Below, one piece after another: positions 1,310-16,076 of a DNA stretch of 16,076 bases (the stretch's first letter is position 1; every line of letters starts with the position of its first letter). The notes under the pieces were generated by a model. The model was not told where the DNA came from. It did no database searches and saw only the letters and a list, made by a program, of their open reading frames with translations. This stretch comes from a virus (lineage: Duplodnaviria; Heunggongvirae; Uroviricota; Caudoviricetes), in the IMG/VR virus record IMGVR_UViG_2541047946_000010. One strand, given 5' to 3'. Both the position numbers and the translations under genes were made by a program.

Positions 1310-1418
1310 AAAATGAATCCGTTGAAGCCTGCTTTTTTATACTAAGTTGGCATTATAAAAAAGCATTGCTTATCAATTTGTTGCAACGAACAGGTCACTA
1401 TCAGTCAAAATAAAATCA
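1310..1418. other. attL: Prophage attachment site attL (bacterial arm, core, phage P' arm); core GCTTTTTTATACTAA at 1331-1345
   Basis: Exact 15-bp lambda att core at 1331-1345, followed by P'-arm-like sequence (GTTGGCATTATAAAAAAGCATTGCTTATCAATTTGTTGCAACGAACAGGTCACTATCAGTCAAAATAAAATCATT) with arm-type Int motifs (CAGGTCACTATCAGTCAAAAT); bacterial sequence on the left leads into ybhC. Confidence 0.85.
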
Positions 1419-2489
1419 TTATTTGATTTCAATTTTGTCCCACTCCCTGCCTCTGTCATCACGATACTGTGATGCCATGGTGTCCGACTTATGCCCGAGA
1501 AGATGTTGAGCAAACTTATCGCTTATCTGCTTCTCATAGAGTCTTGCAGACAAACTGCGCAACTCGTGAAAGGTAGGCGGATCCCCTTCGAAGGAAAGAC
1601 CTGATGCTTTTCGTGCGCGCATAAAATACCTTGATACTGTGCCGGATGAAAGCGGTTCGCGACGAGTAGATGCAATTATGGTTTCTCCGCCAAGAATCTC
1701 TTTGCATTTATCAAGTGTTTCCTTCATTGATATTCCGAGAGCATCAACATGCAATGCTGTTGGGATGGCAATTTTTACGCCTGTTTTGCTTTGCTCGACA
1801 TAAAGATATCCATCTACGATATCAGACCACTTCATTTCGCATAAATCACCAACTCGTTGCCCGGTAACAACAGCCAGTTCCATTGCAAGTCTAAGCCAAC
1901 ATGGTGATGATTCTGCTGCTTGATAAATTTTCAGGTATTCGTCAGCCGTAAGTCTTGATCTCCTTACCTCTGATTTTGCAGCGCGAGTGGCTGCGACCGG
2001 GTTTGTTGTTATATGGCCTTCAGCCATAGCCTCTCGGAATGCATCGCTCAGTGTTGATCTGATTAACTTGGCTGATGCCGCCTTTCCCTCGTCTATGTAT
2101 CCATTGAGCATTGCCGCAATTTCTTTTGTGGTGATGTCTTCAAGTGGAGCATCAGGCAGACCCCTCCTTATTGCTTTAATTTTGCTCATGTAATTTATGA
2201 GTGTCTTCTGCTTGATTCCTCTGCTGGCCAGGATTTTTTCGTAGCGATCAAGCCATGAATGTAATGTAACGGAATTATCACTGTTGATTCTCGCTGTCAG
2301 AGGCTTGTGTTTGTGTCCTGAAAATAACTCAATGTTGGCCTGTATAGCTTCAGTGATTGCGATTCGCCTGTCTCGGCCTAATCCAAACTCTTTACCCGTC
2401 CTTGGGTCCCTGTAGCAGTAATATCCATTGTTTCTTATATAAAGGTTAGGGGGTAAATCCCGGCGCTCATGACTTCGCCTTCTTCCCAT
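1419..2489 (-). CDS. int: Tyrosine integrase, lambda Int type
   Basis: 356-aa ORF; N-terminus MGRRRSHERRDLPPNLYIRNNGYYCYRDPRTGKEFGLGRD and C-terminal catalytic region (HELRSL...LLGH...Y) recognised as lambda Int; sits directly next to attL. Confidence 0.97.
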   Translation of the reverse strand: MGRRRSHERRDLPPNLYIRNNGYYCYRDPRTGKEFGLGRDRRIAITEAIQANIELFSGHKHKPLTARINSDNSVTLHSWLDRYEKILASRGIKQKTLINYMSKIKAIRRGLPDAPLEDITTKEIAAMLNGYIDEGKAASAKLIRSTLSDAFREAMAEGHITTNPVAATRAAKSEVRRSRLTADEYLKIYQAAESSPCWLRLAMELAVVTGQRVGDLCEMKWSDIVDGYLYVEQSKTGVKIAIPTALHVDALGISMKETLDKCKEILGGETIIASTRREPLSSGTVSRYFMRARKASGLSFEGDPPTFHELRSLSARLYEKQISDKFAQHLLGHKSDTMASQYRDDRGREWDKIEIK

Positions 2490-2685
2490 TTCTGATCCTC
2501 TTCAAAAGGCTACCTGTTACTGGTCGATTTAAGTCAACCTTTACCGCTGATTCGTGGAACAGATATTCTCTTCCATCCTTAACCGGAGGAGGGAATATCC
2601 TGCATTCGCGCACCCATCGACGAACTGTTTCAAGGCTTCTTGGGCGTCGCTGGCGAGCGTTCCACTCCTGAAGTGTCAAGTACAT
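2467..2685 (-). CDS. xis: Excisionase Xis
   Basis: 72-aa ORF MYLTLQEWNARQRRPRSLETVRRWVRECRIFPPP... recognised as lambda Xis; its 3' end overlaps the int start by 23 nt, as in lambda. Confidence 0.95.
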   Translation of the reverse strand: MYLTLQEWNARQRRPRSLETVRRWVRECRIFPPPVKDGREYLFHESAVKVDLNRPVTGSLLKRIRNGKKAKS

Positions 2686-2712
2686 CGCAAAGTCTCCGCA
2701 ATTACACGCAAG

Positions 2713-2732
2713 AAAAAACCGCCATCAGGCGG
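2713..2732 (-). terminator. Intrinsic terminator on minus strand between the 55-aa ORF and xis
   Basis: Minus-strand RNA would read CCGCC-UGAU-GGCGG followed by UUUUUU (plus-strand AAAAAACCGCCATCAGGCGG); the stop codon of the 55-aa ORF lies in the loop. Confidence 0.4.
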
Positions 2733-2892
2733 CTTGGTGTTCTTTCAGTTCTTCAATTCGAATATTGGTTACGTCTGCATGCGCTATCTGCGCCCATATC
2801 ATCCAGTGGTTATAGCAGTCGTTGATGTTCTCTGCTTCGATAACCCTGTTGAATGGCTCTCCATTCCATTCACCTGTGACTCGGAAGTGCAT
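2725..2892 (-). CDS. Small hypothetical protein, 55 aa (lambda xis-ea8.5 interval ORF)
   Basis: ATG at 2892 to TGA at 2725, translated by hand as MHFRVTGEWNGEPFNRVIEAENINDCYNHWMIWAQIAHADVTNIRIEELKEHQAA; below the 60-aa cut-off of the supplied ORF track; position matches a small ORF in lambda. Confidence 0.5.
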   Translation of the reverse strand: MHFRVTGEWNGEPFNRVIEAENINDCYNHWMIWAQIAHADVTNIRIEELKEHQAA

Positions 2893-2980
2893 TTATCATC
2901 TCCATAAAACAAAACCCGCCGTAGCGAGTTCAGATAAAATAAATCCCCGCGAGTGCGAGGATTGTTATGTAATATTGGGT

Positions 2981-3262
2981 TTAATCATCTATATGTTTTG
3001 TACAGAGAGGGCAAGTATCGTTTCCACCGTACTCGTGATAATAATTTTGCACGGTATCAGTCATTTCTCGCACATTGCAGAATGGGGATTTGTCTTCATT
3101 AGACTTATAAACCTTCATGGAATATTTGTATGCCGACTCTATATCTATACCTTCATCTACATAAACACCTTCGTGATGTCTGCATGGAGACAAGACACCG
3201 GATCTGCACAACATTGATAACGCCCAATCTTTTTGCTCAGACTCTAACTCATTGATACTCAT
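2981..3262 (-). CDS. ea8.5: Ea8.5-like protein (Cys/His-rich, putative zinc-binding)
   Basis: 93-aa ORF MSINELESEQKDWALSMLCRSGVLSPCRHHEG...CPLCTKHIDD, recognised as lambda Ea8.5; in the expected position upstream of xis. Confidence 0.85.
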   Translation of the reverse strand: MSINELESEQKDWALSMLCRSGVLSPCRHHEGVYVDEGIDIESAYKYSMKVYKSNEDKSPFCNVREMTDTVQNYYHEYGGNDTCPLCTKHIDD

Positions 3263-3367
3263 TTATAAACTCCTTGCAATGTATGTCGTTTCAGCTAAAC
3301 GGTATCAGCAATGTGAACCGCCCCGGGAATCCTGGAGACTAAACTTCCTGAGAAAGAGGTAAACAGG

Positions 3368-3694
3368 ATGACTAAAAATACTCGTTTTTCCCCTGAAGTC
3401 CGTCAACGGGCAGTCCGTATGGTTCTGGAAAGTCAGGGCGAATATGACTCACAATGGGCGACAATTTGTTCCATTGCTCCAAAGATTGGCTGTACGCCGG
3501 AGACTCTGCGTGTCTGGGTTCGCCAGCATGAGCGGGATACCGGGGGCGGTGATGGAGGGCTCACCACCGCTGAACGTCAGCGTCTGAAAGAGCTGGAGCG
3601 TGAAAATCGTGAACTGCGCCGCAGTAACGATATCCTTCGCCAGGCTTCCGCTTATTTTGCGAAGGCGGAGTTCGACCGCCTCTGGAAAAAATGA
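3368..3694 (+). CDS. IS3-family transposase OrfA (helix-turn-helix and leucine-zipper part)
   Basis: 108-aa [33 protein letters not shown]... recognised as IS629/IS1203-group OrfA; ends in an A6 run (AAAAAA at 3686-3691) that overlaps the orfB start. Confidence 0.93.
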
Positions 3695-4581
3695 TGCCAC
3701 TGCTGGATAAGCTGCGTGAGCAGTACGGGGTCGGACCGCTATGCAGCGAACTGCATATTGCCCCGTCAACGTATTACCACTGTCAGCAACAGCGACATCA
3801 TCCGGATAAACGCAGTGCCCGTGCGCAGCGCGATGACTGGCTGAAGAAAGAGATACAGCGCGTATACGATGAAAATCACAAGGTATACGGTGTGCGTAAA
3901 GTCTGGCGTCAGTTGTTACGGGAAGGTATCAGAGTGGCCAGATGCACTGTGGCACGTCTCATGGCGGTTATGGGACTTGCCGGTGTTCTCCGGGGTAAAA
4001 AGGTCCGTACGACCATCAGCCGGAAAGCCGTTGCCGCAGGCGACCGCGTAAACCGTCAGTTCGTGGCAGAACGACCTGACCAGCTGTGGGTGGCTGATTT
4101 TACTTACGTCAGCACATGGCAGGGCTTCGTCTATGTGGCGTTCATCATTGATGTGTTTGCCGGATACATTGTGGGGTGGCGGGTCTCATCGTCCATGGAG
4201 ACGACATTCGTGCTGGATGCACTGGAGCAGGCGTTATGGGCCCGTCGACCGTCCGGCACGGTCCATCACAGTGATAAAGGTTCTCAGTATGTATCGCTGG
4301 CCTACACACAGCGGCTTAAGGAAGCCGGATTACTGGCATCAACAGGAAGTACAGGCGACTCGTATGACAACGCGATGGCGGAGAGCATCAATGGTCTTTA
4401 CAAAGCGGAGGTAATACACCGTAAGAGCTGGAAAAACCGTGCAGAAGTGGAACTGGCCACACTCACGTGGGTGGACTGGTATAACAATCGACGATTGCTG
4501 GAAAGGCTGGGCCATACTCCTCCGGCAGAAGCAGAAAAAGCTTATTATGCTTCCATCGGAAACGATGATCTGGCAGCCTGA
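3691..4581 (+). CDS. IS3-family transposase OrfB (DDE catalytic domain), in -1 frame relative to orfA
   Basis: 296-aa ORF; DDE residues visible in [16 protein letters not shown] and [12 protein letters not shown]; starts with ATG overlapping the orfA TGA, consistent with programmed -1 frameshift fusion typical of IS3 elements. Confidence 0.93.
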
Positions 4582-4623
4582 GTTCACAGATAAAATACTC
4601 TCCAGGAAACCCGGGGCGGTTCA

Positions 4624-5469
4624 GAGCGTAATGTGGCAGATCTCGATGATGGTTACGCCAGACTATCAAATATGCTGCTTGAGGCTTATTCAGGCGCAGA
4701 TCTGACCAAGCGACAGTTTAAAGTGCTGCTTGCCATTCTGCGTAAAACCTATGGGTGGAATAAACCAATGGACAGAATCACCGATTCTCAACTTAGCGAG
4801 ATTACAAAGTTACCCGTCAAACGGTGCAATGAAGCCAAGTTAGAACTCGTCAGAATGAATATTATCAAGCAGCAAGGCGGCATGTTTGGACCAAACAAAA
4901 ACATCTCAGAATGGTGCATCCCTCAAAACGAGGGAAAATCCCCTAAAACGAGGGATAAAACATCCCTCAAATTGGGGGATTGCTATCCCTCAAAACAGGG
5001 GGACACAAAAGACACTATTACAAAAGAAAAAAGAAAAGATTATTCGTCAGAGAATTCTGGCGAATCCTCTGACCAGCCAGAAAACGACCTTTCTGTGGTG
5101 AAACCGGATGCTGCAATTCAGAGCGGCAGCAAGTGGGGGACAGCAGAAGACCTGACCGCCGCAGAGTGGATGTTTGACATGGTGAAGACCATCGCGCCAT
5201 CAGCCAGAAAACCGAATTTTGCAGGGTGGGCTAACGATATCCGCCTGATGCGTGAACGTGACGGACGTAACCACCGCGACATGTGCGTGCTGTTCCGCTG
5301 GGCATGCCAGGACAACTTCTGGTCCGGTAACGTGCTTAGCCCGGCCAAACTCCGCGACAAGTGGACCCAGCTCGAAATCAACCGTAACAAGCAACAGGCA
5401 GTCGTGACAGCCAGCAAACCAAAACTCGACCTGACAAACACAGACTGGATTTACGGGGTGGATCTATGA
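4624..5469 (+). pseudogene. O: Replication initiator O, 5'-truncated by the IS (first ~20 codons and promoter missing)
   Basis: The reading frame runs straight out of the IS right end (GGTTCA|GAG CGT AAT GTG GCA GAT CTC = ERNVADL...); remaining 281 codons match lambda O from residue ~21 to the C-terminus (…DWIYGVDL); first in-frame starts are GTG 4633 and ATG 4672; no upstream pR or ribosome-binding context. Confidence 0.85.
4918..5050. repeat. ori-lambda: four iterons (each an inverted repeat of TCCCTCAAAACGAGGGA type) plus adjacent AT-rich unwinding region
   Basis: Four tandem ~19-24-bp repeats (ATCCCTCAAAACGAGGGA / AAATCCCCTAAAACGAGGGATAAA / ACATCCCTCAAATTGGGGGATTGCT / ATCCCTCAAAACAGGGGGAC) followed by an A-rich tract (AAAAGACACTATTACAAAAGAAAAAAGAAAAGATTATT), located inside O as in lambda. 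Confidence 0.85.
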
Positions 5470-6167
5470 AAAACATCGCCGCACAGATGGTTAACTTTGA
5501 CCGTGAGCAGATGCGTAGGATCGCCAACAACATGCCGGAACAGTACGACGAAAAGCCGCAGGTACAGCAGGTAGCGCAGATCATCAACGGTGTGTTCAGC
5601 CAGTTACTGGCAACTTTCCCGGCGAGTCTGGCTAACCGTGACCAGAACGAACTGAACGAAATCCGCCGCCAGTGGGTTCTGGCTTTCCGGGAAAACGGGA
5701 TCACCACAATGGAACAGGTTAACGCAGGAATGCGCGTAGCCCGTCGGCAGAATCGACCATTTCTGCCATCACCCGGGCAGTTTGTTGCATGGTGCCGGGA
5801 AGAAGCATCCGTTATCGCCGGACTGCCAAACGTCAGCGAGCTGGTTGATATGGTTTACGAGTATTGCCGGAAGCGAGGCCTGTATCCGGATGCGGAGTCT
5901 TATCCGTGGAAATCAAACGCGCACTACTGGCTGGTTACCAACCTGTATCAGAACATGCGGGCCAATGCGCTTACTGATGCGGAATTACGCCGTAAGGCCG
6001 CAGATGAGCTTGTCCATATGACTGCGAGAATTAACCGTGGTGAGGCGATCCCTGAACCAGTAAAACAACTTCCTGTCATGGGCGGTAGACCTCTAAATCG
6101 TGCACAGGCTCTGGCGAAGATCGCAGAACTCAAAGCTAAGTTCGGACTGAAAGGAGCAAGTGTATGA
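5466..6167 (+). CDS. P: Replication protein P (DnaB helicase loader)
   Basis: 233-aa ORF MKNIAAQMVNFDREQMRRIANNMPEQYDEKPQ... recognised as lambda P; its ATG overlaps the O stop (ATGA). Confidence 0.95.
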   Translation: MKNIAAQMVNFDREQMRRIANNMPEQYDEKPQVQQVAQIINGVFSQLLATFPASLANRDQNELNEIRRQWVLAFRENGITTMEQVNAGMRVARRQNRPFLPSPGQFVAWCREEASVIAGLPNVSELVDMVYEYCRKRGLYPDAESYPWKSNAHYWLVTNLYQNMRANALTDAELRRKAADELVHMTARINRGEAIPEPVKQLPVMGGRPLNRAQALAKIAELKAKFGLKGASV

Positions 6168-6454
6168 CGGGCAAAGAGGCAATTATTCATTACCTGGGGA
6201 CGCATAATAGCTTCTGTGCGCCGGACGTTGCCGCGCTAACAGGCGCAACAGTAACCAGCATAAATCAGGCCGCGGCTAAAATGGCACGGGCAGGTCTTCT
6301 GGTTATCGAAGGTAAGGTCTGGCGAACGGTGTATTACCGGTTTGCTACCAGGGAAGAACGGGAAGGAAAGATGAGCACGAACCTAATTTTTAAGGAGTGT
6401 CGCCAGAGTGCCGCGATGAAACGGGTATTGGCGGTATATGGAGTTAAAAGATGA
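6164..6454 (+). CDS. ren: Ren protein (protection from Rex exclusion)
   Basis: 96-aa ORF MTGKEAIIHYLGTHNSFCAPDVAALTGATV... recognised as lambda Ren; ATGA overlap with the P stop. Confidence 0.9.
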   Translation: MTGKEAIIHYLGTHNSFCAPDVAALTGATVTSINQAAAKMARAGLLVIEGKVWRTVYYRFATREEREGKMSTNLIFKECRQSAAMKRVLAVYGVKR

Positions 6455-6480
6455 CCATCTACATCACTGAGCTAATAACA

Positions 6481-6510
6481 GGCCTGCTGGTAATTGCAGG
6501 CCTTTTTATT
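6481..6510 (+). terminator. Intrinsic terminator, lambda tR2 equivalent (between ren and ninB)
   Basis: GGCCTGC-TGGTAATT-GCAGGCC hairpin followed by TTTTTATTT on the plus strand. Confidence 0.6.
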
Positions 6511-6527
6511 TGGGGGAGAGGGAAGTC

Positions 6528-6968
6528 ATGAAAAAACTAACCTTTGAAATTCGATCTCCAGCACATCAGCAAAACGCTATTCACGCGGTACAGCAAATTC
6601 TTCCAGACCCAACCAAACCAATCGTAGTAACCATTCAGGAACGCAACCGCAGCTTAGACCAGAATCGAAAGCTTTGGGCTTGCCTTGGTGACGTCTCTCG
6701 TCAGGTTGAATGGCATGGTCGCTGGCTGGATGCAGAAAGCTGGAAGTGTGTGTTTACCGCAGCATTAAAGCAGCAGGATGTTGTTCCTAACCTTGCCGGG
6801 AATGGCTTTGTGGTAATAGGCCAGTCAACCAGCAGGATGCGTGTAAGCGAATTTGCGGAGCTATTAGAGCTTATACAGGCATTCGGTACAGAGCGTGGCG
6901 TTAAGTGGTCAGACGAAGCGCGACTGGCTCTCGAATGGAAAGCGCGATGGGGAGATCGGGCTGCATGA
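6528..6968 (+). CDS. ninB: NinB (Orf recombination mediator family)
   Basis: 146 aa from ATG 6528 (MKKLTFEIRSPAHQQNAIHAVQQ...), with a purine-rich ribosome-binding site GGGAGAGGGAAG upstream; the ORF-track start at 6510 is a TTG extension; recognised as lambda NinB. Confidence 0.9.
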   Translation: MKKLTFEIRSPAHQQNAIHAVQQILPDPTKPIVVTIQERNRSLDQNRKLWACLGDVSRQVEWHGRWLDAESWKCVFTAALKQQDVVPNLAGNGFVVIGQSTSRMRVSEFAELLELIQAFGTERGVKWSDEARLALEWKARWGDRAA

Positions 6969-7492
6969 CTATCAAATCAAATACGCCAGCACACGACAAG
7001 GACTGCTGGCAAACGCCGCTTTGGCTTTTTGATGCACTGGATATTGAGTTTGGATTCTGGCTGGATTCGGCAGCGAGCGACAAAAATGCTCTGTGCGCTC
7101 ACTGGCTAACTGAGGACGACGACGCGCTCAATTCTGAGTGGGTAAGCCACGGTGCAATCTGGAATAACCCACCGTACAGCAATATCAGGCCGTGGGTGGA
7201 AAAAGCCGCTGAGCAGTGTATACAACAGCGACAGACGGTAGTGATGCTTGTGCCAGAGGATATGTCTGTCGGATGGTTCAGCAAGGCTCTGGAGAGTGTT
7301 GACGAAGTTCGTATTATCACTGATGGACGGATTAATTTTATCGAACCATCGACAGGGCTGGAGAAGAATGGAAACAGCAAAGGCTCCATGCTGCTGATTT
7401 GGCGACCGTTCATCAGTCCTCGACGGATGTTTACTACCGTATCCAAAGCGGCATTGATGGCGATCGGGCAGGGCGTCAGGAGGGCTGCATGA
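6965..7492 (+). CDS. Phage orphan DNA N6-adenine methyltransferase (Dam-like)
   Basis: 175 aa from ATG 6965, which overlaps the ninB stop (ATGA); contains NPPY catalytic motif (WNNPPYS) and an upstream DxFxGxG-like region ([17 protein letters not shown]); occupies the position of ninC/ninD in lambda. Confidence 0.82.
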
Positions 7493-7665
7493 GACGACAG
7501 CGACGAAGCATCACCGACATAATCTGCGAAAACTGCAAATACCTTCCAACGAAATGCTCCAGAAATAAACGCAAGCTAATCCCAAAAGAATCTGACGTAA
7601 AAACCTTCAATTACACAGCCCACCTGTGGGATATCCGGTGGCTAAGATATCGTGCGAGGAAATGA
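7489..7665 (+). CDS. ninE: NinE
   Basis: 58 aa from ATG 7489 ([29 protein letters not shown]...), ATGA overlap with the methyltransferase stop; recognised as NinE; the longer ORF from 7399 in the track is an in-frame upstream extension. Confidence 0.8.
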
Positions 7666-8009
7666 CAATGGATTATTCACAGTTAAGTGATTTTGAAATT
7701 AACAGAATGGTAGGAGACATAATTTTTAAAGGCCTTTGGGCAAGTAAACCGGAAACATCAGGGAATAACACCAACAAATGGTATTACGGAAATGCTGATA
7801 CAACTTTTGAGCCATTAAATCATTTGCCTGACTACTGCAATGATCCGAGCGCTTCATGGCCGATTATTGAGAAATACAGGATTTCTATCTTAGACCAGTT
7901 AACTGAATGGTGTGTGGATGCAAAAGGCGTAAGCCCAATATTTGATACCAGACCTCTCCGCGCCGCCATGATTGTCTTTCTCCTGATGCAGGAGGCCAAT
8001 AATGCTTAG
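7662..8009 (+). CDS. Hypothetical acidic protein of unknown function (nin-region accessory ORF)
   Basis: 115 aa from ATG 7662, overlapping the ninE stop ([26 protein letters not shown]...); translational coupling with neighbours argues for a real gene; no recognisable motif; lambda has no counterpart between ninE and ninF. Confidence 0.6.
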
Positions 8010-8196
8010 CCCATCTCAATCCCTTCAATACCTGAAAGAAAGCATAGAGCGGGCTTCAATGTGCACAGAGTGGATTCTATCTAGGTTTAGCGCATACAGA
8101 AGATTGCCGGTAAAGGGCATGCCAAGCAAGTCGATGCTGCATATGCAAAAGAATGCGCGCTGGAAGGTATGGCGAGAACACAGGTTATGTGGCTAA
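8002..8196 (+). CDS. NinF-like small protein with divergent C-terminus (possible mosaic or frameshifted remnant)
   Basis: 64-aa ORF; the first ~18 residues ([18 protein letters not shown]) resemble lambda NinF, the rest does not; a different frame over 8091-8216 encodes ...[28 protein letters not shown], which I recall as the C-terminus of DLP12 YbcO (DUF1364). Confidence 0.4.
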
Positions 8197-8215
8197 AAGA
8201 GGGGGTTATTAAGGC

Positions 8216-8578
8216 GTGAATACCTACAGCATCACATTACCCTGGCCTCCGAGCAATAATCGCTATTACCGCCATAATCGCGGGCGCACGCACGTCAGCG
8301 CAGAGGGGCAGGCATACCGCGATAACGTCGCCCGAATCATTAAAAACGCAATGCTGGATATCGGCCTGGCTATGCCTGTGAAAATCCGCATTGAGTGCCA
8401 CATGCCGGATCGCCGTCGCCGTGACCTGGATAATCTGCAAAAAGCCGCTTTTGACGCACTCACTAAAGCAGGTTTCTGGCTGGATGATGCTCAGGTCGTT
8501 GATTACCGCGTTGTGAAGATGCCTGTTACCAAAGGTGGGAGGCTGGAACTGACCATCACCGAAATGGGGAATGAATGA
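8216..8578 (+). CDS. rusA: Holliday-junction resolvase RusA
   Basis: 120-aa ORF with GTG start, [41 protein letters not shown]..., recognised as RusA of DLP12/phage 82 type; it occupies the place of ninG/rap in lambda. Confidence 0.93.
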
Positions 8579-8715
8579 TGTTTGAGTTTAATATGGCAGA
8601 ACTTCTTCGCCACCGCTGGGGGCGTCTGCGCTTATATCGTTTCCCCGGTTCTGTTTTGACCGATTACCGAATACTGAAGAATTACGCCAAAACCCTGACA
8701 GGAACAGGAGTATGA
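8575..8715 (+). CDS. ylcG: Small protein YlcG-like (46 aa)
   Basis: Hand translation from ATG 8575 gives [46 protein letters not shown], stop at 8713-8715; overlaps the rusA stop; matches my recollection of DLP12 YlcG; below the ORF-track cut-off. Confidence 0.6.
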
Positions 8716-8800
8716 AGTCAGAGATAACAATCAACTAATACTGTTTTGTTGATTTTTGCTTGTAATTGGCGTTCTGGTCTGATTTTTGTGGAGTAAGTTG

Positions 8801-9184
8801 ATGCGTGATATTCAGATGGTTCTTGAGCGTTGGGGTGCGTGGGCGGCTAATAATCATGAAGATGTGACCTGGTCGTCCATTGCCGCCGGTTTTAAGGGAT
8901 TAATTCCTTCAAAAGTAAAATCTCGCCCGCAATGTTGTGACGATGACGCGATGATCATTTGCGGGTGCATGGCCCGTCTGAAAAAGAACAACAGCGATTT
9001 ACACGATTTATTAGTAGATTATTATGTATGTGGTATGACATTCATGTCACTGGCAAGTAAGCATTGCTGCTCGGATGGTTATATCGGGAAAAGGTTACAG
9101 AAGGCTGAGGGCATAATTGAAGGGATGTTAATGGCATTAGATATCCGGTTAGATATGGATATCGTTGCTAATAATTCTAATTGA
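8801..9184 (+). CDS. Q: Late-gene antiterminator Q (short QuuD/phage-21-like type)
   Basis: 127 aa from ATG 8801 with GGAG 7 nt upstream ([24 protein letters not shown]... with Cys-rich [12 protein letters not shown]); the ORF-track start at 8786 is a TTG extension; lies immediately upstream of the late promoter region and lysis genes. Confidence 0.85.
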
Positions 9185-9202
9185 TATGCAATTGTTTACT
9201 AA

Positions 9203-9235
9203 AAGTTATTAAAAATGGGGCGTGGAAACGCCCCC
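9203..9235 (-). terminator. Intrinsic terminator on minus strand, likely 3' end of the porin transcript
   Basis: Minus-strand RNA would read GGGGCG-UUUCCA-CGCCCC followed by AUUUUUAAUAACUUUU. Confidence 0.45.
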
Positions 9236-9321
9236 AAAATAAAGGGTAATATATAACAGAAGGTTTATATAGTAAGAAGCAAGGTAGTGCTTCTAAAGGA
9301 AGTGGCTTGAGGGCTCCACTT

Positions 9322-9361
9322 ATATGTTGCGGAGGCAAAGCCTCCCGCAACATATCTTTTT
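9322..9361 (+). terminator. Intrinsic terminator on plus strand downstream of Q (tR'-like); also a 3' stem-loop of the convergent porin gene
   Basis: ATATGTTGCGGAGGC-AAA-GCCTCCCGCAACATAT (about 15-bp stem with one bulge) followed by CTTTTT. Confidence 0.6.
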
Positions 9362-9372
9362 CGTAAGTCAGA

Positions 9373-10455
9373 TTAGAACTGATAAACCAGACCTACAGCG
9401 ACGATGTCGTCGGTATCAATACCAGCTGTTTTGGTAAACTTACTATCGTCAATTAAGTTGATTTTGTAATCAACAAAAGTAGACATGTTTTTATTAAAGT
9501 AGTAAGTAGCACCGACATCGACATACTTGACTAAGTCTCGGTCACCATGAACACCAAGGTCTTTACCTTTTGACTGAAGGTAAGCAACAGATGGGCGCAG
9601 ACCGAAGTCAAACTGATATTGTGCTACTGCTTCAAAGTTTTGTGCTTTGTTTGCAATATGGTTATTACCAAAAACGGTCATATTCTGAGTTTCAGAATAT
9701 GTGGTAGCCAGATAGATATTGTTCGCATCATATTTCAGGCCTGCAGCCCATACTTCCGCATTTTTGCCGGAGGCATTGAATTTGCTCTTACCATAGGCGA
9801 CCTGACCGTCAGTGCGATCTGATTTAGCATAGGTTGCACCCACGCCGAATCCTTCATACTCATAAGTAGTGGAGAAACCGAAACCATCACCATTGGCTTC
9901 AGTTACGTCAGTGCGGTCATTTTTACCCTGATACTGAGCAGCAAAGTTCAGGCCATCGACCAGACCAAAGAAGTCGTTGTTACGATAAGTTGCAACACCA
10001 GTAGTGCGACCAGTCATGAACACATCTGTTTGGGTCCAGGTATCACCACCGAATTCTGGCAGAACGTCAGTCCACGCACCGATGTCGTATGCTACACCGT
10101 AGTTACGGCCGTAATCGATGGAGCCGTAATCACCAAATTTCAGGCCTGCAAATGCAAGACGGGTTTTGTCTTTGGAAGAACCTTGAGATTCAGCACGGTT
10201 GCCTTTGAATTCATATTCCCACTGACCGAAACCAGTCAGTTGATCGTTGATTTGGGTTTCACCTTTGAAGCCAAGACGGGCATAAGTAGTATCACCATCA
10301 TCTGCATCATTAGAGGAGAAGTAGTGCTTGGCATTAACTTTCCCGTATAGATCCAGCTTGTTACTGTCTTTATTATAAATTTCAGCTGCCTGAGCAGACA
10401 TCGCCATCAGTACTGATGCAGCTACAGCAGAAATTGCCACTGTTAATTTTTTCAT
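9373..10455 (-). CDS. nmpC: Phage-borne OmpC-family general porin (NmpC/Lc-like moron)
   Basis: 360 aa from ATG 10455 with AAGGG ribosome-binding site; signal peptide [23 protein letters not shown] followed by [17 protein letters not shown]-terminal ...VGLVYQF with terminal Phe; classic 16-strand porin hallmarks; the upstream Met at 10515 lacks a ribosome-binding site and is rejected. Confidence 0.92.
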
Positions 10456-10880
10456 TGTACGCCCTTTTTTTGAACTATTATTAAAAAATGATGTCACTGC
10501 GCGATAAATATTCATCTAATCAATGTGATTATTTCAAGATGTAAGTTTTAGTTTCTCATTTAATTTGTGAAGTAGATCTCTATTTTTATCTGAACCTTTT
10601 CTATCTAATCCTATTCATGGCTCTTGTCTGAACAAAAATAAATCTATTAGCTAATTTATATTAATGGCACTTATTTATAAGTGCTCTATAATTCTTTAGC
10701 TTAATTTAAACAAACTAAAAATAACATCGGAAATTATTAACTGATTATTTGTTGAAGTTTTCTTATGTATTTGTGGTGGTGTTTTGAACACTCGGTGGCA
10801 TTCTCACAAATATCATTTAGTAGTTTACGTACGTAAAAAATTGGTTATGCTGTTAAGAGTGGTTACTTCGTCACACAGCT
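10456..10880 (-). promoter_or_regulatory. AT-rich porin upstream regulatory region (promoter not precisely mapped)
   Basis: About 425 bp of visibly AT-rich non-coding DNA upstream of the porin start, contrasting with flanking phage genes; typical of horizontally acquired morons and of porin control regions. Confidence 0.35.
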
Positions 10881-10881
10881 T

Positions 10882-10912
10882 AAACCCGCCGTCGAGCGGG
10901 TTTTTCCATTTT
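10882..10912 (+). terminator. Intrinsic terminator on plus strand upstream of the lysis cassette
   Basis: AAACCCGC-CGTCGA-GCGGGTTT followed by TTCCATTTTTT. Confidence 0.5.
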
Positions 10913-11043
10913 TTGAGTCTCGATATTAGCTGATAACCCAATACCTGAGTTATTCACTGACTCCGAATCTGTTACGTTTCTGCCTTTATTGCGATACGTA
11001 ATATCCCCTTAATTTACACCCGCTTTGTCTGCGAGGTGGGGTT

Positions 11044-11259
11044 ATGAAATCCATGGATAAGTTAACAACGGGTGTCGCCTATGGCACCTCAGCAGGTAGT
11101 GCCGGTTACTGGTTTTTACAGCTGCTCGATAAAGTCACGCCCTCACAGTGGGCAGCAATAGGTGTGCTGGGTAGCCTGGTATTTGGCCTGCTGACGTACC
11201 TGACAAACCTTTATTTCAAGATTAAAGAAGATAAGCGCAAGGCTGCGAGAGGTGAATAA
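11044..11259 (+). CDS. S: Class II holin (pinholin, phage 21 S type) with dual-start motif
   Basis: 71 aa, [26 protein letters not shown]...; Met1-Lys-Ser-Met4 dual start; two hydrophobic segments; GAGGTGG ribosome-binding site; recognised as the S21/EssD family. Confidence 0.9.
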
Positions 11260-11756
11260 TGCCTCCATCATTACGAAAAGCCGTTGCTGCTGCTATTGGT
11301 GGCGGAGCAATTGCTATAGCATCAGTGTTAATCACTGGCCCAAGTGGTAACGATGGTCTGGAAGGTGTCAGCTACATACCATACAAAGATATTGTTGGTG
11401 TATGGACTGTATGTCACGGGCATACAGGAAAAGACATCATGCTCGGTAAAACGTATACCAAAGCAGAATGCAAAGCCCTCCTGAATAAAGACCTTGCCAC
11501 GGTCGCCAGACAAATTAACCCGTACATCAAAGTCGATATACCGGAAACAATGCGCGGCGCTCTTTACTCATTCGTTTACAACGTGGGTGCTGGCAATTTC
11601 AGAACATCGACGCTTCTTCGCAAAATAAACCAGGGCGATATCAAAGGCGCATGTGATCAGCTACGTCGCTGGACATATGCTGGCGGTAAGCAATGGAAAG
11701 GTCTCATGACTCGTCGTGAGATTGAGCGTGAAATCTGTTTGTGGGGTCAGCAATGA
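11259..11756 (+). CDS. R: SAR endolysin (T4-lysozyme-like muramidase with N-terminal signal-arrest-release domain)
   Basis: 165 aa; Gly/Ala-rich N-terminal transmembrane segment [20 protein letters not shown]; catalytic E-x8-D-x5-T pattern in [18 protein letters not shown]; start overlaps the holin stop (TAATG). Confidence 0.9.
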
Positions 11757-12214
11757 ACAGAGTAACCGCGATTATCTCCGCTCTGGTTATCTGCATCATC
11801 GTCTGCCTGTCATGGGCTGTTAATCATTACCGTGATAACGCCATTACCTACAAAGCCCAGCGCGACAAAAATGCCAGAGAACTGAAGCTGGCGAACGCGG
11901 CAATTACTGACATGCAGATGCGTCAGCGTGATGTTGCTGCGCTCGATGCAAAATACACGAAGGAGTTAGCTGATGCGAAAGCTGAAAATGATGCTCTGCG
12001 TGATGATGTTGCCGCTGGTCGTCGTCGGTTGCACATCAAAGCAGTCTGTCAGTCAGTGCGTGAAGCCACCACCGCCTCCGGCGTGGATAATGCAGCCTCC
12101 CCCCGACTGGCAGACACCGCTGAACGGGATTATTTCACCCTCAGAGAGAGGCTGATCACTATGCAAAAACAACTGGAAGGAACCCAGAAGTATATTAATG
12201 AGCAGTGCAGATAG
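11753..12214 (+). CDS. Rz: Rz inner-membrane spanin
   Basis: 153 aa from ATG 11753, overlapping the endolysin stop; N-terminal transmembrane segment, coiled-coil-like middle; recognised as lambda-type Rz. Confidence 0.88.
11973..12155 (+). CDS. Rz1: Rz1 outer-membrane lipoprotein spanin, embedded in the +1 frame of Rz
   Basis: 60 aa [20 protein letters not shown]... with lipobox VVGC and proline-rich mature part ([16 protein letters not shown]); lies entirely inside Rz. Confidence 0.82.
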
Positions 12215-12245
12215 AGCTGCCCATATCGATGGGCAACTCATGCAA

Positions 12246-12539
12246 TTATTGTGAGCAATACACACGCGCTTCCAGCGGAGTATAAATGCCTAAAGTAATA
12301 AAACCGAGAAATCCATTTACGAATGTTTGCTGGGTTTCTGTTTTAACAACATTTTCTGCGCCGCCACAAATTTTGGCTGCATCAACAGTTTTCTCCTGTC
12401 CAATTCCCGAAACGAAGAAATGATGGGTGATGGTTTCCTTTGGTGTTACTGCTGTCGGTTTGTTTCCAACAGTAAACGTCTGTTGAGCACATCCTGTAAT
12501 AAGCATTGCCAGAGCGGCAGAAAACAACATTTTTTTCAT
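12246..12539 (-). CDS. bor: Bor lipoprotein (serum-resistance-associated)
   Basis: 97 aa from ATG 12539 (MKKMLFSAALAMLITGCAQQTFTV...), lipobox ITGC; recognised as lambda Bor; the ORF-track start at 12587 is an upstream extension. Confidence 0.9.
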   Translation of the reverse strand: MKKMLFSAALAMLITGCAQQTFTVGNKPTAVTPKETITHHFFVSGIGQEKTVDAAKICGGAENVVKTETQQTFVNGFLGFITLGIYTPLEARVYCSQ

Positions 12540-12655
12540 CTTATTATCCTGCATTGTTAAAAACGGCAGAATCCTATGTGACAACAATTAAACGATAGTT
12601 AAATGGATTGATGAAAATTAAAACTATATAGGTGGATGCTCAGCCTATTGGAGGA

Positions 12656-12664
12656 GGGGGGGGG
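12656..12664. repeat. G9 homopolymer tract within a purine-rich run (GGAGGAGGGGGGGGG)
   Basis: Nine consecutive G at 12656-12664, about 117 bp upstream of the bor start codon, in non-coding DNA. Confidence 0.9.
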
Positions 12665-12901
12665 CACTCAGAATCCTGTGGAATGAAATAAACCGCTCTA
12701 TCTGTCCATTACCCTTTTAGCTGCGCTGTATCGTCGCCGTATTCCCGCATTAACCATGACCGTAGCCCGACGGGGAATTCCTTCTGCGTGAGTGTGCGGG
12801 AATAATCAAAAACGATGCACACCGGGTTTTACTGTGCTGACAGACGCAGGGTTACCCTCATAGTCGCTTTTCCGGTGCGATGGTGGAAGAAACCGGGATG
12901 T

Positions 12902-13096
12902 TCATCCATCATCACTTTGGATTGATGTATATGCTCTCTTTTCTGACGTTAGTCTCCGACGGCAGGCTTCAATGACCCAGGCTGAGAAATTCCCAGACCC
13001 TTTTTGCTCAAGAGCGATGTTAATTTGTTCAATCATTTGGTTAGGAAAGCGGATGTTGCGGGTTGTTGTTCTGCGGGTTCTGTTCTTCGTTGACAT
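12902..13096 (-). CDS. Small basic protein, probable ribbon-helix-helix DNA binder (YlcI/DUF3950-like)
   Basis: 64-aa ORF MSTKNRTRRTTTRNIRFPNQMIEQINIALEQKGSGNFSAWVIEACRRRL...; basic N-terminus followed by an RHH-like strand-helix pattern; lies just upstream of cos on the opposite strand. Confidence 0.6.
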   Translation of the reverse strand: MSTKNRTRRTTTRNIRFPNQMIEQINIALEQKGSGNFSAWVIEACRRRLTSEKRAYTSIQSDDG

Positions 13097-13249
13097 GAGG
13101 TTGCCCCGTATTCAGTGTCGCTGATTTGTATTGTCTGAAGTTGTTTTTACGTTAAGTTGATGCAGATCAATTAATATGATACCTGCGTCATAATTGATTA
13201 TTTGACGTGGTTTGATGGCGTAGATGCACGTTGTGACATGCAGATGATA

Positions 13250-13470
13250 ATTATTATCATTTTGCGGGTCCTTTCCGGCGATCCGACAGGTTACGGGGCG
13301 GCGACCTCGCGGGTTTTCGCTATTTATGAAAATTTTCCGGTTTAAGGCGTTTCCGTTCTTCTTCGTCATAACTTAATGTTTTTATTTAAAATACCCTCTG
13401 AAAAGAAAGGAAACGACAGGTGCTGAAAGCGAGCTTTTTGGCCTCTGTCGTTTCCTTTCTCTGTTTTTGT
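13250..13470. other. cos: Cohesive end site cos: cosQ, cosN (GGGCGGCGACCT at 13296-13307) and cosB with three R elements
   Basis: Exact lambda 12-nt cohesive-end sequence preceded by ...CCGACAGGTTACG; downstream heptamers CGTTTCC (13348), GGAAACG (13409, inverted) and CGTTTCC (13449) match the R3/R2/R1 layout, with an AT-rich IHF-like tract between the first two. Confidence 0.88.
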
Positions 13471-13484
13471 CCGTGGAATGAACA

Positions 13485-14004
13485 ATGGAAGTCAACAAAA
13501 AGCAGCTGGCTGACATTTTCGGTGCGAGTATCCGTACCATTCAGAACTGGCAGGAACAGGGAATGCCCGTTCTGCGAGGCGGTGGCAAGGGTAATGAGGT
13601 GCTTTATGACTCTGCCGCCGTCATAAAATGGTATGCCGAAAGGGATGCTGAAATTGAGAACGAAAAGCTGCGCCGGGAAGTTGAAGAACTGCGGCAGGCC
13701 AGCGAGACAGATCTCCAGCCAGGGACTATTGAGTACGAACGCCACCGACTTACGCGTGCACAGGCCGACGCACAGGAGCTGAAAAATGCCAGAGACTCCG
13801 CTGAAGTGGTGGAAACCGCATTCTGTACTTTCGTGCTGTCGCGGATCGCAGGTGAAATTGCCAGTATTCTCGACGGGATCCCCCTGTCGGTGCAGCGGCG
13901 TTTTCCGGAACTGGAAAACCGACATGTTGATTTCCTGAAACGGGATATCATCAAAGCCATGAACAAAGCAGCCGCGCTGGATGAACTGATACCGGGGTTG
14001 CTGA

Positions 14005-14030
<26 letters not shown>
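13485..14030 (+). CDS. Nu1: Terminase small subunit Nu1
   Basis: 181-aa ORF MEVNKKQLADIFGASIRTIQNWQEQGMPVLRGGGKGNEVLYD... recognised as lambda Nu1 (winged-HTH N-terminus). Confidence 0.97.

Positions 14031-16076
<2,046 letters not shown>

Follow-up and report, generated by a model that had tools for sequence, protein, structure and literature searches.

The replication genes of a lambdoid prophage of Escherichia coli begin, in the DNA analysed here, at an IS element joined to codon 19 of the initiator gene O. Probably this locus is the scar left when a PhiR11_1/lambda-like prophage at the lambda attachment site very recently underwent an IS-mediated deletion, with a pristine origin left inside a replicon that is most likely silent. 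The event is ordinary prophage decay of an already known kind. The locus is an example of the grounding of lambdoid prophages by IS629-group elements and has little significance beyond annotation.

Results

Source of the window and the prophage around it

The window (the whole stretch of DNA that was analysed, 16,076 nucleotides) matches the chromosome of E. coli MMC-J-0105 (NZ_CM128543) with 99.99% identity over 16076 bases. The window begins in ybhC. In the annotation of this chromosome the prophage genes that follow are int, xis, a 55-aa orf, ea8.5, an IS3-family element, a 'replication protein', P and ren, then ninB, dam, ninE, ninX, rusA, ylcG, quuD, a porin, lysis genes, bor/iss and terminase. 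The attL core lies between ybhC and int, which places the left prophage end at the lambda attachment site (Table 1). Among viable phages the closest relative of the prophage is Escherichia phage PhiR11_1 (PV340547), whose bases 1-1965 correspond to window 1350-3314 with 100% identity (against lambda 27724-29706 the retained left arm is 98.7% identical). Its bases 11259-22709 correspond to window 4624-16076 with 99.9% identity, with zero differences from 4624 to 10681. The sole indel across these 11.4 kb is an insertion of GG at window 12656-12657, which in PhiR11_1 coordinates falls between bor and the next small orf. Two items of late-region cargo are intact, an OmpC/NmpC-like porin (9373-10515, minus strand) and the bor/iss serum-survival lipoprotein (12246-12587, minus strand), and these parts of the prophage may still be of value to the host.

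Table 1. Positions of the features in the window, with the evidence for each.
Feature	Position	Strand	Evidence or detail
attL core, lambda att common core GCTTTTTTATACTAA	1331-1345	+	exact match, none expected by chance; ybhC/int annotation in NZ_CM128543
Prophage left arm (retained)	1419-3262	-	Pfam Lambda_ea8_5, Phage_integrase
int	1419-2489	-	
xis	2467-2685	-	
55-aa orf	2725-2892	-	
ea8.5	2981-3262	-	
Left deletion junction	3313-3314	.	window 3313 = lambda 29706, just past ea8.5
IS3-family element, IS629/IS1203 group, 1310 bp	3314-4623	+	inverted repeats, ALIL pseudoknot, transposase model
IS orfA	3368-3694	+	orfA/orfB frameshift (-1)
IS orfB	3691-4581	+	orfA/orfB frameshift (-1)
Right deletion junction	4623-4624	.	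IS right end joined to lambda 38740, first base of O codon 19 (GAG)
O remnant, lambda O residues 19-299 + stop	4624-5469	+	translation; one substitution, G278V
ori iterons ITN1-4, 18 bp each	4918-5002	+	4918-4935, 4938-4955, 4962-4979, 4985-5002
AT-rich unwinding region + inverted repeat	5003-5073	+	AT-rich ~5003-5044 (GC 0.28-0.30), A-rich top strand
P (helicase loader), 233 aa, full length	5466-6167	+	3 substitutions vs lambda; PF06992 209 bits
ren, 96 aa, full length	6164-6454	+	1 substitution vs lambda
Intrinsic terminator	6480-6513	+	stem 8 pairs (6 GC), then TTTTTATTT

The IS element and the deletion junctions

The element lies in the orientation of O-P-ren. Its terminal inverted repeats (beginning TGA) match at 23 of the first 25 positions, an ALIL frameshift pseudoknot is found at 3649-3765 (Rfam, 120 bits), and the transposase matches NF033516 (NCBIfam IS3 transposase, 316 bits) and contains rve (DDE) Pfam domains. 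By inverted repeats, frameshift and DDE transposase it belongs to the IS629/IS1203 group of the IS3 family. About 23 places in the same chromosome match it.

No 3-bp target duplication surrounds the element, the left flank being AATG and the right flank GAG. Since the duplication is absent and the two flanks derive from lambda 29706 and 38740, the structure is a deletion junction and not a simple insertion. The left junction is ambiguous by one base, as the T at 3314 fits the IS end and the phage alike. The missing interval, lambda 29707-38739, comprises 9033 bp in lambda coordinates and ~9.3 kb in PhiR11_1. According to the annotation of lambda and PhiR11_1, it held ea22, exo, bet, gam, kil, cIII, ral, sieB and N, the cI immunity region including pL and pR, cro, cII and its ice site, oop/pO, nutR and O codons 1-18. 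A first reading made from the sequence alone (hereafter the sequence-only reading) had stated that O was truncated at its N-terminus by ~20 codons, together with its start, ribosome-binding site and pR transcription. The truncation is confirmed, at 18 codons rather than ~20 (window 4624 is the first base of codon 19), and the O ATG, its AGGAG ribosome-binding site and pR all lie in the deleted interval. That reading had not described the ~9 kb IS-flanked deletion itself, by which cI, cro, cII, N and oop/pO were lost as well, together with the whole early-left operon. The junction recurs in assemblies made independently of one another (CM128543, OZ038772 and a draft contig whose end lies within the IS), so it is real and no assembly artefact.

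The proposed course of events is that an IS629-group (IS3-family) element arrived at O codon 18/19 and that ~9 kb was then removed, either by an adjacent deletion from the left end of the IS or by recombination with a second copy; the two routes are equally possible. [quoted passage not shown] Without cI, N, cII, pL and pR the prophage would be non-inducible and non-excisable, locked in the chromosome. The identity of 4624-10681 to the viable PhiR11_1 indicates that the deletion is recent, and it carries no selection signal.

The origin, P and ren

The claim that all four iterons and the AT-rich region are intact holds at the level of single bases. The iterons are identical to those annotated in lambda NC_001416 and were also recovered as a four-copy family by an independent repeat search; direct comparison of 5003-5060 gave identity to lambda, and no differing base occurs from 4897 to 5189. 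GC content is as low as 0.275-0.30 at 5000-5059, and the AT-rich region is followed by a 12-nt inverted repeat (5046-5057 / 5062-5073). Thus the four iterons, the AT-rich region and the inverted repeat of ori-lambda are present inside O, and the rightward transcription from pR is missing. The iterons encode O residues 117-145, that is, the end of the winged helix and the start of the linker. By coordinate conversion, the linker at residues 132-168 corresponds to window 5017-5127, just downstream of the iterons and over the AT-rich region and the inverted repeat.

P and ren, likewise said to be intact, are full length (Table 1), and at the DNA level both match the viable phages 2G7b and PhiR11_1 with 100% identity. 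The ATG of P overlaps the O stop codon (ATGA). The strong intrinsic terminator after ren we take, by its position, to be lambda tR2.

The O remnant keeps the conserved parts of the initiator

The substitution G278V, the only one in the remnant, is also present in PhiR11_1, whose DNA is identical here; residues 132-299 otherwise equal those of lambda. PF04492 matched the remnant at model positions 2-95 of 95 with 123.2 bits, where full-length lambda O scores 123.4 bits, and the aligned region (lambda O residues 22-115) is complete. TIGR01610 (phage_O_Nterm) matched over 1-95 of 95 with 132.8 bits. The sequence-only reading had spoken of a truncated iteron-binding domain fragment; this description does not hold, since both domain models are matched at essentially full length and the C-terminal half of the protein, which binds P (PMC6022878), is present as well. 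What the remnant has of a lambda O-type initiator is the winged-helix origin-binding domain and the C-terminal P-interaction domain; what it lacks is the N-terminal degron tail and an expressible gene with a start, a ribosome-binding site and an early promoter.

The missing codons include the whole ClpX N-motif-1 degron of O, TNTAKILNFGR at residues 2-12 (PMC12723719, PMC8138137). An exhaustive family search returned 8137 relatives of O. For most of these proteins the start of the conserved core lies at residue 20-26 in their own numbering, which makes an N-terminal tail of ~20 residues a family feature, and the beginning of the tail is loosely conserved. In the alignment the core starts at lambda residue 22. 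About nine of the 150 listed family representatives start directly at the core (MADCDDGY..., MAEIENGY...), as an O' started at GTG would do (M-ADLDDGY...).

An AlphaFold model of residues 19-299 (mean pLDDT 81) gave low confidence to lambda residues 19-29, a first helix at 34-42 and a winged helix extending to ~108. The origin-binding domain was predicted as helices and a beta-hairpin with pLDDT >90, followed by a disordered linker (132-168, pLDDT <50) and a confident helical C-terminal domain (183-282). Foldseek with this model returned weak winged-helix matches, and no solved O structure was found by sequence search. A 2007 crystallisation paper by Struble reportedly gives residues 19-139 as the minimal origin-binding domain of O.

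Candidate starts and transcription of the remnant

The sequence-only reading had proposed that O-like protein could be made only by read-through from the IS and initiation at GTG 4633 or ATG 4672. These two codons, lambda V22 and M35 respectively, are indeed the first start codons after the in-frame TAA 4591-4593. The orfB gene is in the same frame as the O remnant, with two stops between them (TGA 4579 and TAA 4591). An upstream in-frame start restoring a full-length O was looked for and none was found; TAA 4591-4593 rules out such a product. RefSeq lists the remnant as a 278-aa 'replication protein' (WP_021572736.1) starting at GTG 4633, and a start at this codon leaves 21 residues missing. 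Ahead of GTG 4633 the only SD-like motif is GGGGCGG of the IS end, at a distance of 12-13 nt, and the context is structured (-15.4 kcal/mol). For ATG 4672 there is no SD pairing (+0.4), and its context is the most structured of the candidate starts near the 5' end (-24.4 kcal/mol). The native starts of O, P and ren all have well-placed SD pairing. The product from GTG 4633 would be a near-complete initiator minus the N-terminal tail and degron; that from ATG 4672 would keep the C-terminal domain but be without the conserved ADLDDGY motif and the first part of helix 1. O(22-299), if made, is more likely to supply O function than to block it.

No sigma-70-like promoter was predicted within 3200-6600, a hybrid promoter at the IS right end included, by a scan that is insensitive: weak promoters escape it, and the IS's own weak promoter was missed too. 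The earlier description of the remnant as promoterless is probably right. Transposase promoters of the IS3 family are weak (PMC9330008), and the right ends of such elements can bear outward -35 elements or promoters (PMC9330008, PMC8860574); for outward promoters of IS629 and for published N-terminal truncations of O, the literature search returned only general statements on the IS3 family. Transcription of the transposase runs toward the O remnant and no terminator was predicted between orfB and the remnant, so some transcription over O' and the origin is plausible. Such weak read-through would cross O', the origin, P and ren and end at the tR2-like terminator, where it should stop because N and nutR are deleted. 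This terminator should shield the nin, Q and late regions from the IS.

Related loci and independent IS629-group insertions

The exact IS-O junction was present in one of 5426 complete E. coli genomes, that of the source strain only, and the identical 278-aa protein was found on at least 41 contigs in a wider collection. In OZ038772 (locus L006, ~3206-5468) the same IS-O' junction occurs with orfB interrupted at the equivalent of window ~4100-4108; the insert of ~2.3 kb encodes a 507-aa reverse transcriptase/maturase (RVT_1 + GIIM) and is a group II intron.

Strain LC-1302-2020 (NZ_CP091756; locus L009 5700-7030, window 2292 / 3313-4626) has the same prophage and the same IS isoform with the IS inverted. 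Its IRL abuts CGTAATGTG (O codon 20), exactly 3 bp further into O than IRR stands in the window, and the other IS end lies within int at CTC (window 2290-2292), so that the deletion is larger. This arrangement may have arisen when a second, inverted copy inserted into int and its IRL then attacked 3 nt outside the old IRR, by the figure-eight chemistry of the IS3 family. In the same strain (L009 6960-7868) RefSeq lists a 302-aa 'replication protein', WP_439330445.1, which starts at an ATT within the IS end and continues through the inverted repeat into O'. This seems to be an artefact of annotation and not a real fusion; both RefSeq entries, of 278 and 302 aa, are better read as decapitated O genes.

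FDAARGOS_1249 (NZ_CP069459, locus L010) carries the same prophage with immunity and full-length O kept. An IS2 is inserted there (2356-3700) 33 bp to the right of the left junction of the window, and an identical IS629-like isoform (15778-17089) lies between a truncated dam and a truncated rzpD. The genes from ninE through R (ninE, Q, porin, S, R) are gone, which is another route to a grounded prophage.

Other IS629-group insertions at or near the start of O were also seen. In MS119-7 (locus L003, ~8060-8067), whose copy is 95.5% identical overall to the isoform in the window, an independent insertion lies 2-3 bp upstream of the O ATG; in a Shiga-toxin-producing E. coli (STEC) group the insertion is inside cII; and a metagenome contig (locus L008, 1-60) has one at O codon 22. 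This codon-22 junction was absent from the complete genomes, and a metagenome scan found the same contig only. The clustering of IS629-group insertions at the cII/O boundary may be due to a hot spot, to the IS load or to recurrent selection against expression of O.

Discussion

Taken together, the results are best explained by a recent deletion that left the origin intact and its replicon without means of initiation. The replicon would be unable to fire by itself: there would be no useful level of initiator, and the transcription required in cis would be gone with pR. Published work established that O and P supplied in trans fail to fire a prophage origin without pR transcription in cis, that trace expression of P from a plasmid is lethal, and that cells die when a lambda origin that cannot be excised fires (PMC6022878). 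This lethality, together with the persistence of the allele in several isolates, argues for silence, and for P being essentially silent here. The host chromosome has no second lambda-type O locus, and thus no resident full-length O acts in trans. The sequence-only reading had called the origin probably dead, and judged from the DNA a silent or dead origin is most likely.

A counter-point to silence is that the degron is lost and all conserved parts of the initiator are kept, so that even rarely translated product could accumulate. One may then suppose that IS read-through or a weak hybrid promoter transcribes O'-P-ren and that a stable O(22-299), started at GTG 4633, is a cryptic functional initiator. 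We regard this as quite unlikely. The complete PF04492 and TIGR01610 matches, the core that starts at lambda residue 22, the representatives (~9 of the 150 listed) that begin right at it, the low model confidence at residues 19-29 with a first helix only from 34, the entire deletion of TNTAKILNFGR (PMC12723719, PMC8138137) and an IS oriented as O' with no predicted terminator in between all speak for it. They are set against the lack of a predicted promoter, a GTG start in structured mRNA with its SD-like motif 12-13 nt off, the weakness of IS3-family transposase promoters (PMC9330008), and a ~20-residue tail that most family members keep and that therefore probably matters; unregulated origin firing and trace P are moreover lethal (PMC6022878), yet the lineage persists in several isolates. 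If such an initiator were made, it could cause low-level firing of the chromosomal origin, with transcriptional activation supplied by the same transcript, and could complement O-defective lambda-replicon phages. That a degron-less, long-lived O(22-299) has let the IS turn the phage origin into a secondary chromosomal origin, weak and independent of repressor, or into a helper of related phages is highly improbable; it would be an unusual rewiring of a phage origin, and nothing here points that way. Just as improbable is interference with superinfecting lambda-type phages, which the sequence-only reading had suggested for a fragment of O; here the idle origin or a defective O' would titrate O or P, or, in a variant, a product from ATG 4672 or further downstream would do so, retaining the P-binding domain without DNA binding. 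An ordinary lambda lysogen, with its single silent copy of the origin, still supports heteroimmune lambda-replicon phages; it is classical knowledge that a single prophage ori-lambda does not stop them. A plasmid-borne lambda origin does block lambda replication (PMC4488673, PMC3349717), O-P interactions can abolish O complementation (PMC6022878), and the M35-started product would have the composition that the variant calls for, without ADLDDGY and the beginning of helix 1 and with the C-terminal domain. The published origin effects, however, were obtained with plasmid-borne origins, and the Hayes system also needed oop/pO (PMC3349717), which is deleted here; ATG 4672 has neither SD pairing nor an open context (-24.4 kcal/mol), and for an event too recent there is no conservation signal. 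The suggestion is thus unsupported.

Somewhat more room, though still as a doubtful alternative, may be given to selected domestication, in which the deletion rose because it removed the lethality of induction (kil, uncontrolled O/P-driven replication, lysis) and kept the porin and bor/iss. The allele would then be a natural counterpart of laboratory survivors defective in replicative killing, in which O and P have been hit by insertions or deletions (PMC6022878). The independent hits of IS629-group elements in the cII/O 5' region of other strains, and the different ways in which sister strains inactivate the same prophage, agree with this explanation, but recurrence may equally reflect IS load (~23 matching places here) or target preference, and the exact junction was found in only one of 5426 complete genomes. 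Sequence 100% identical to that of a living phage, moreover, holds no signal of selection; since the right arm is still so, the intactness of P, ren and the origin is uninformative in this respect. Spread by drift and spread through lost induction lethality would look alike in the DNA. Under the preferred reading, that of a recent deletion scar with a silent replicon, the remnant is of use as a natural 'tail-less, degron-less' O allele, with which one may ask whether the O tail is needed beyond turnover.

Compared with the replication module of lambda, the locus has the same gene order, the ATGA overlap of O and P, identical iterons and AT-rich region, full-length P and ren and a tR2-like terminator after ren. 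Residues 19-299 of O differ by one substitution, and codons 1-18, including the ClpX degron, are absent; so are the O ribosome-binding site, pO/oop, cII with the ice site, cro, pR, cI, N and nutR, and no autonomous replicon is possible. With PhiR11_1 the DNA is 100% identical over O'-P-ren and on to 10681. The late region resembles that of DLP12, a cryptic prophage of K-12 (rusA, ylcG, quuD, porin, essD, rrrD, rzpD). The junction has the form of the IEE-promoted 'type d' adjacent deletions of IS629/IS1203-type elements, in which likewise an intact IS with frameshifted orfAB stands at the junction, a multi-kb block is lost on one side and there is no target duplication (PMC9330008, PMC8860574); the isoform here is ~94% identical, over the 80-nt right end, to the O157 copies annotated as IS1203 family. 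The RK- cryptic lambda prophages of the Hayes laboratory are also non-excisable fragments, retained in the chromosome, in which initiation was lost by insertion or deletion in O (PMC6022878). The present locus differs from them in that the immunity region is deleted too, so that no repressor is needed, while the origin and P are wild type and the structural genes appear intact.
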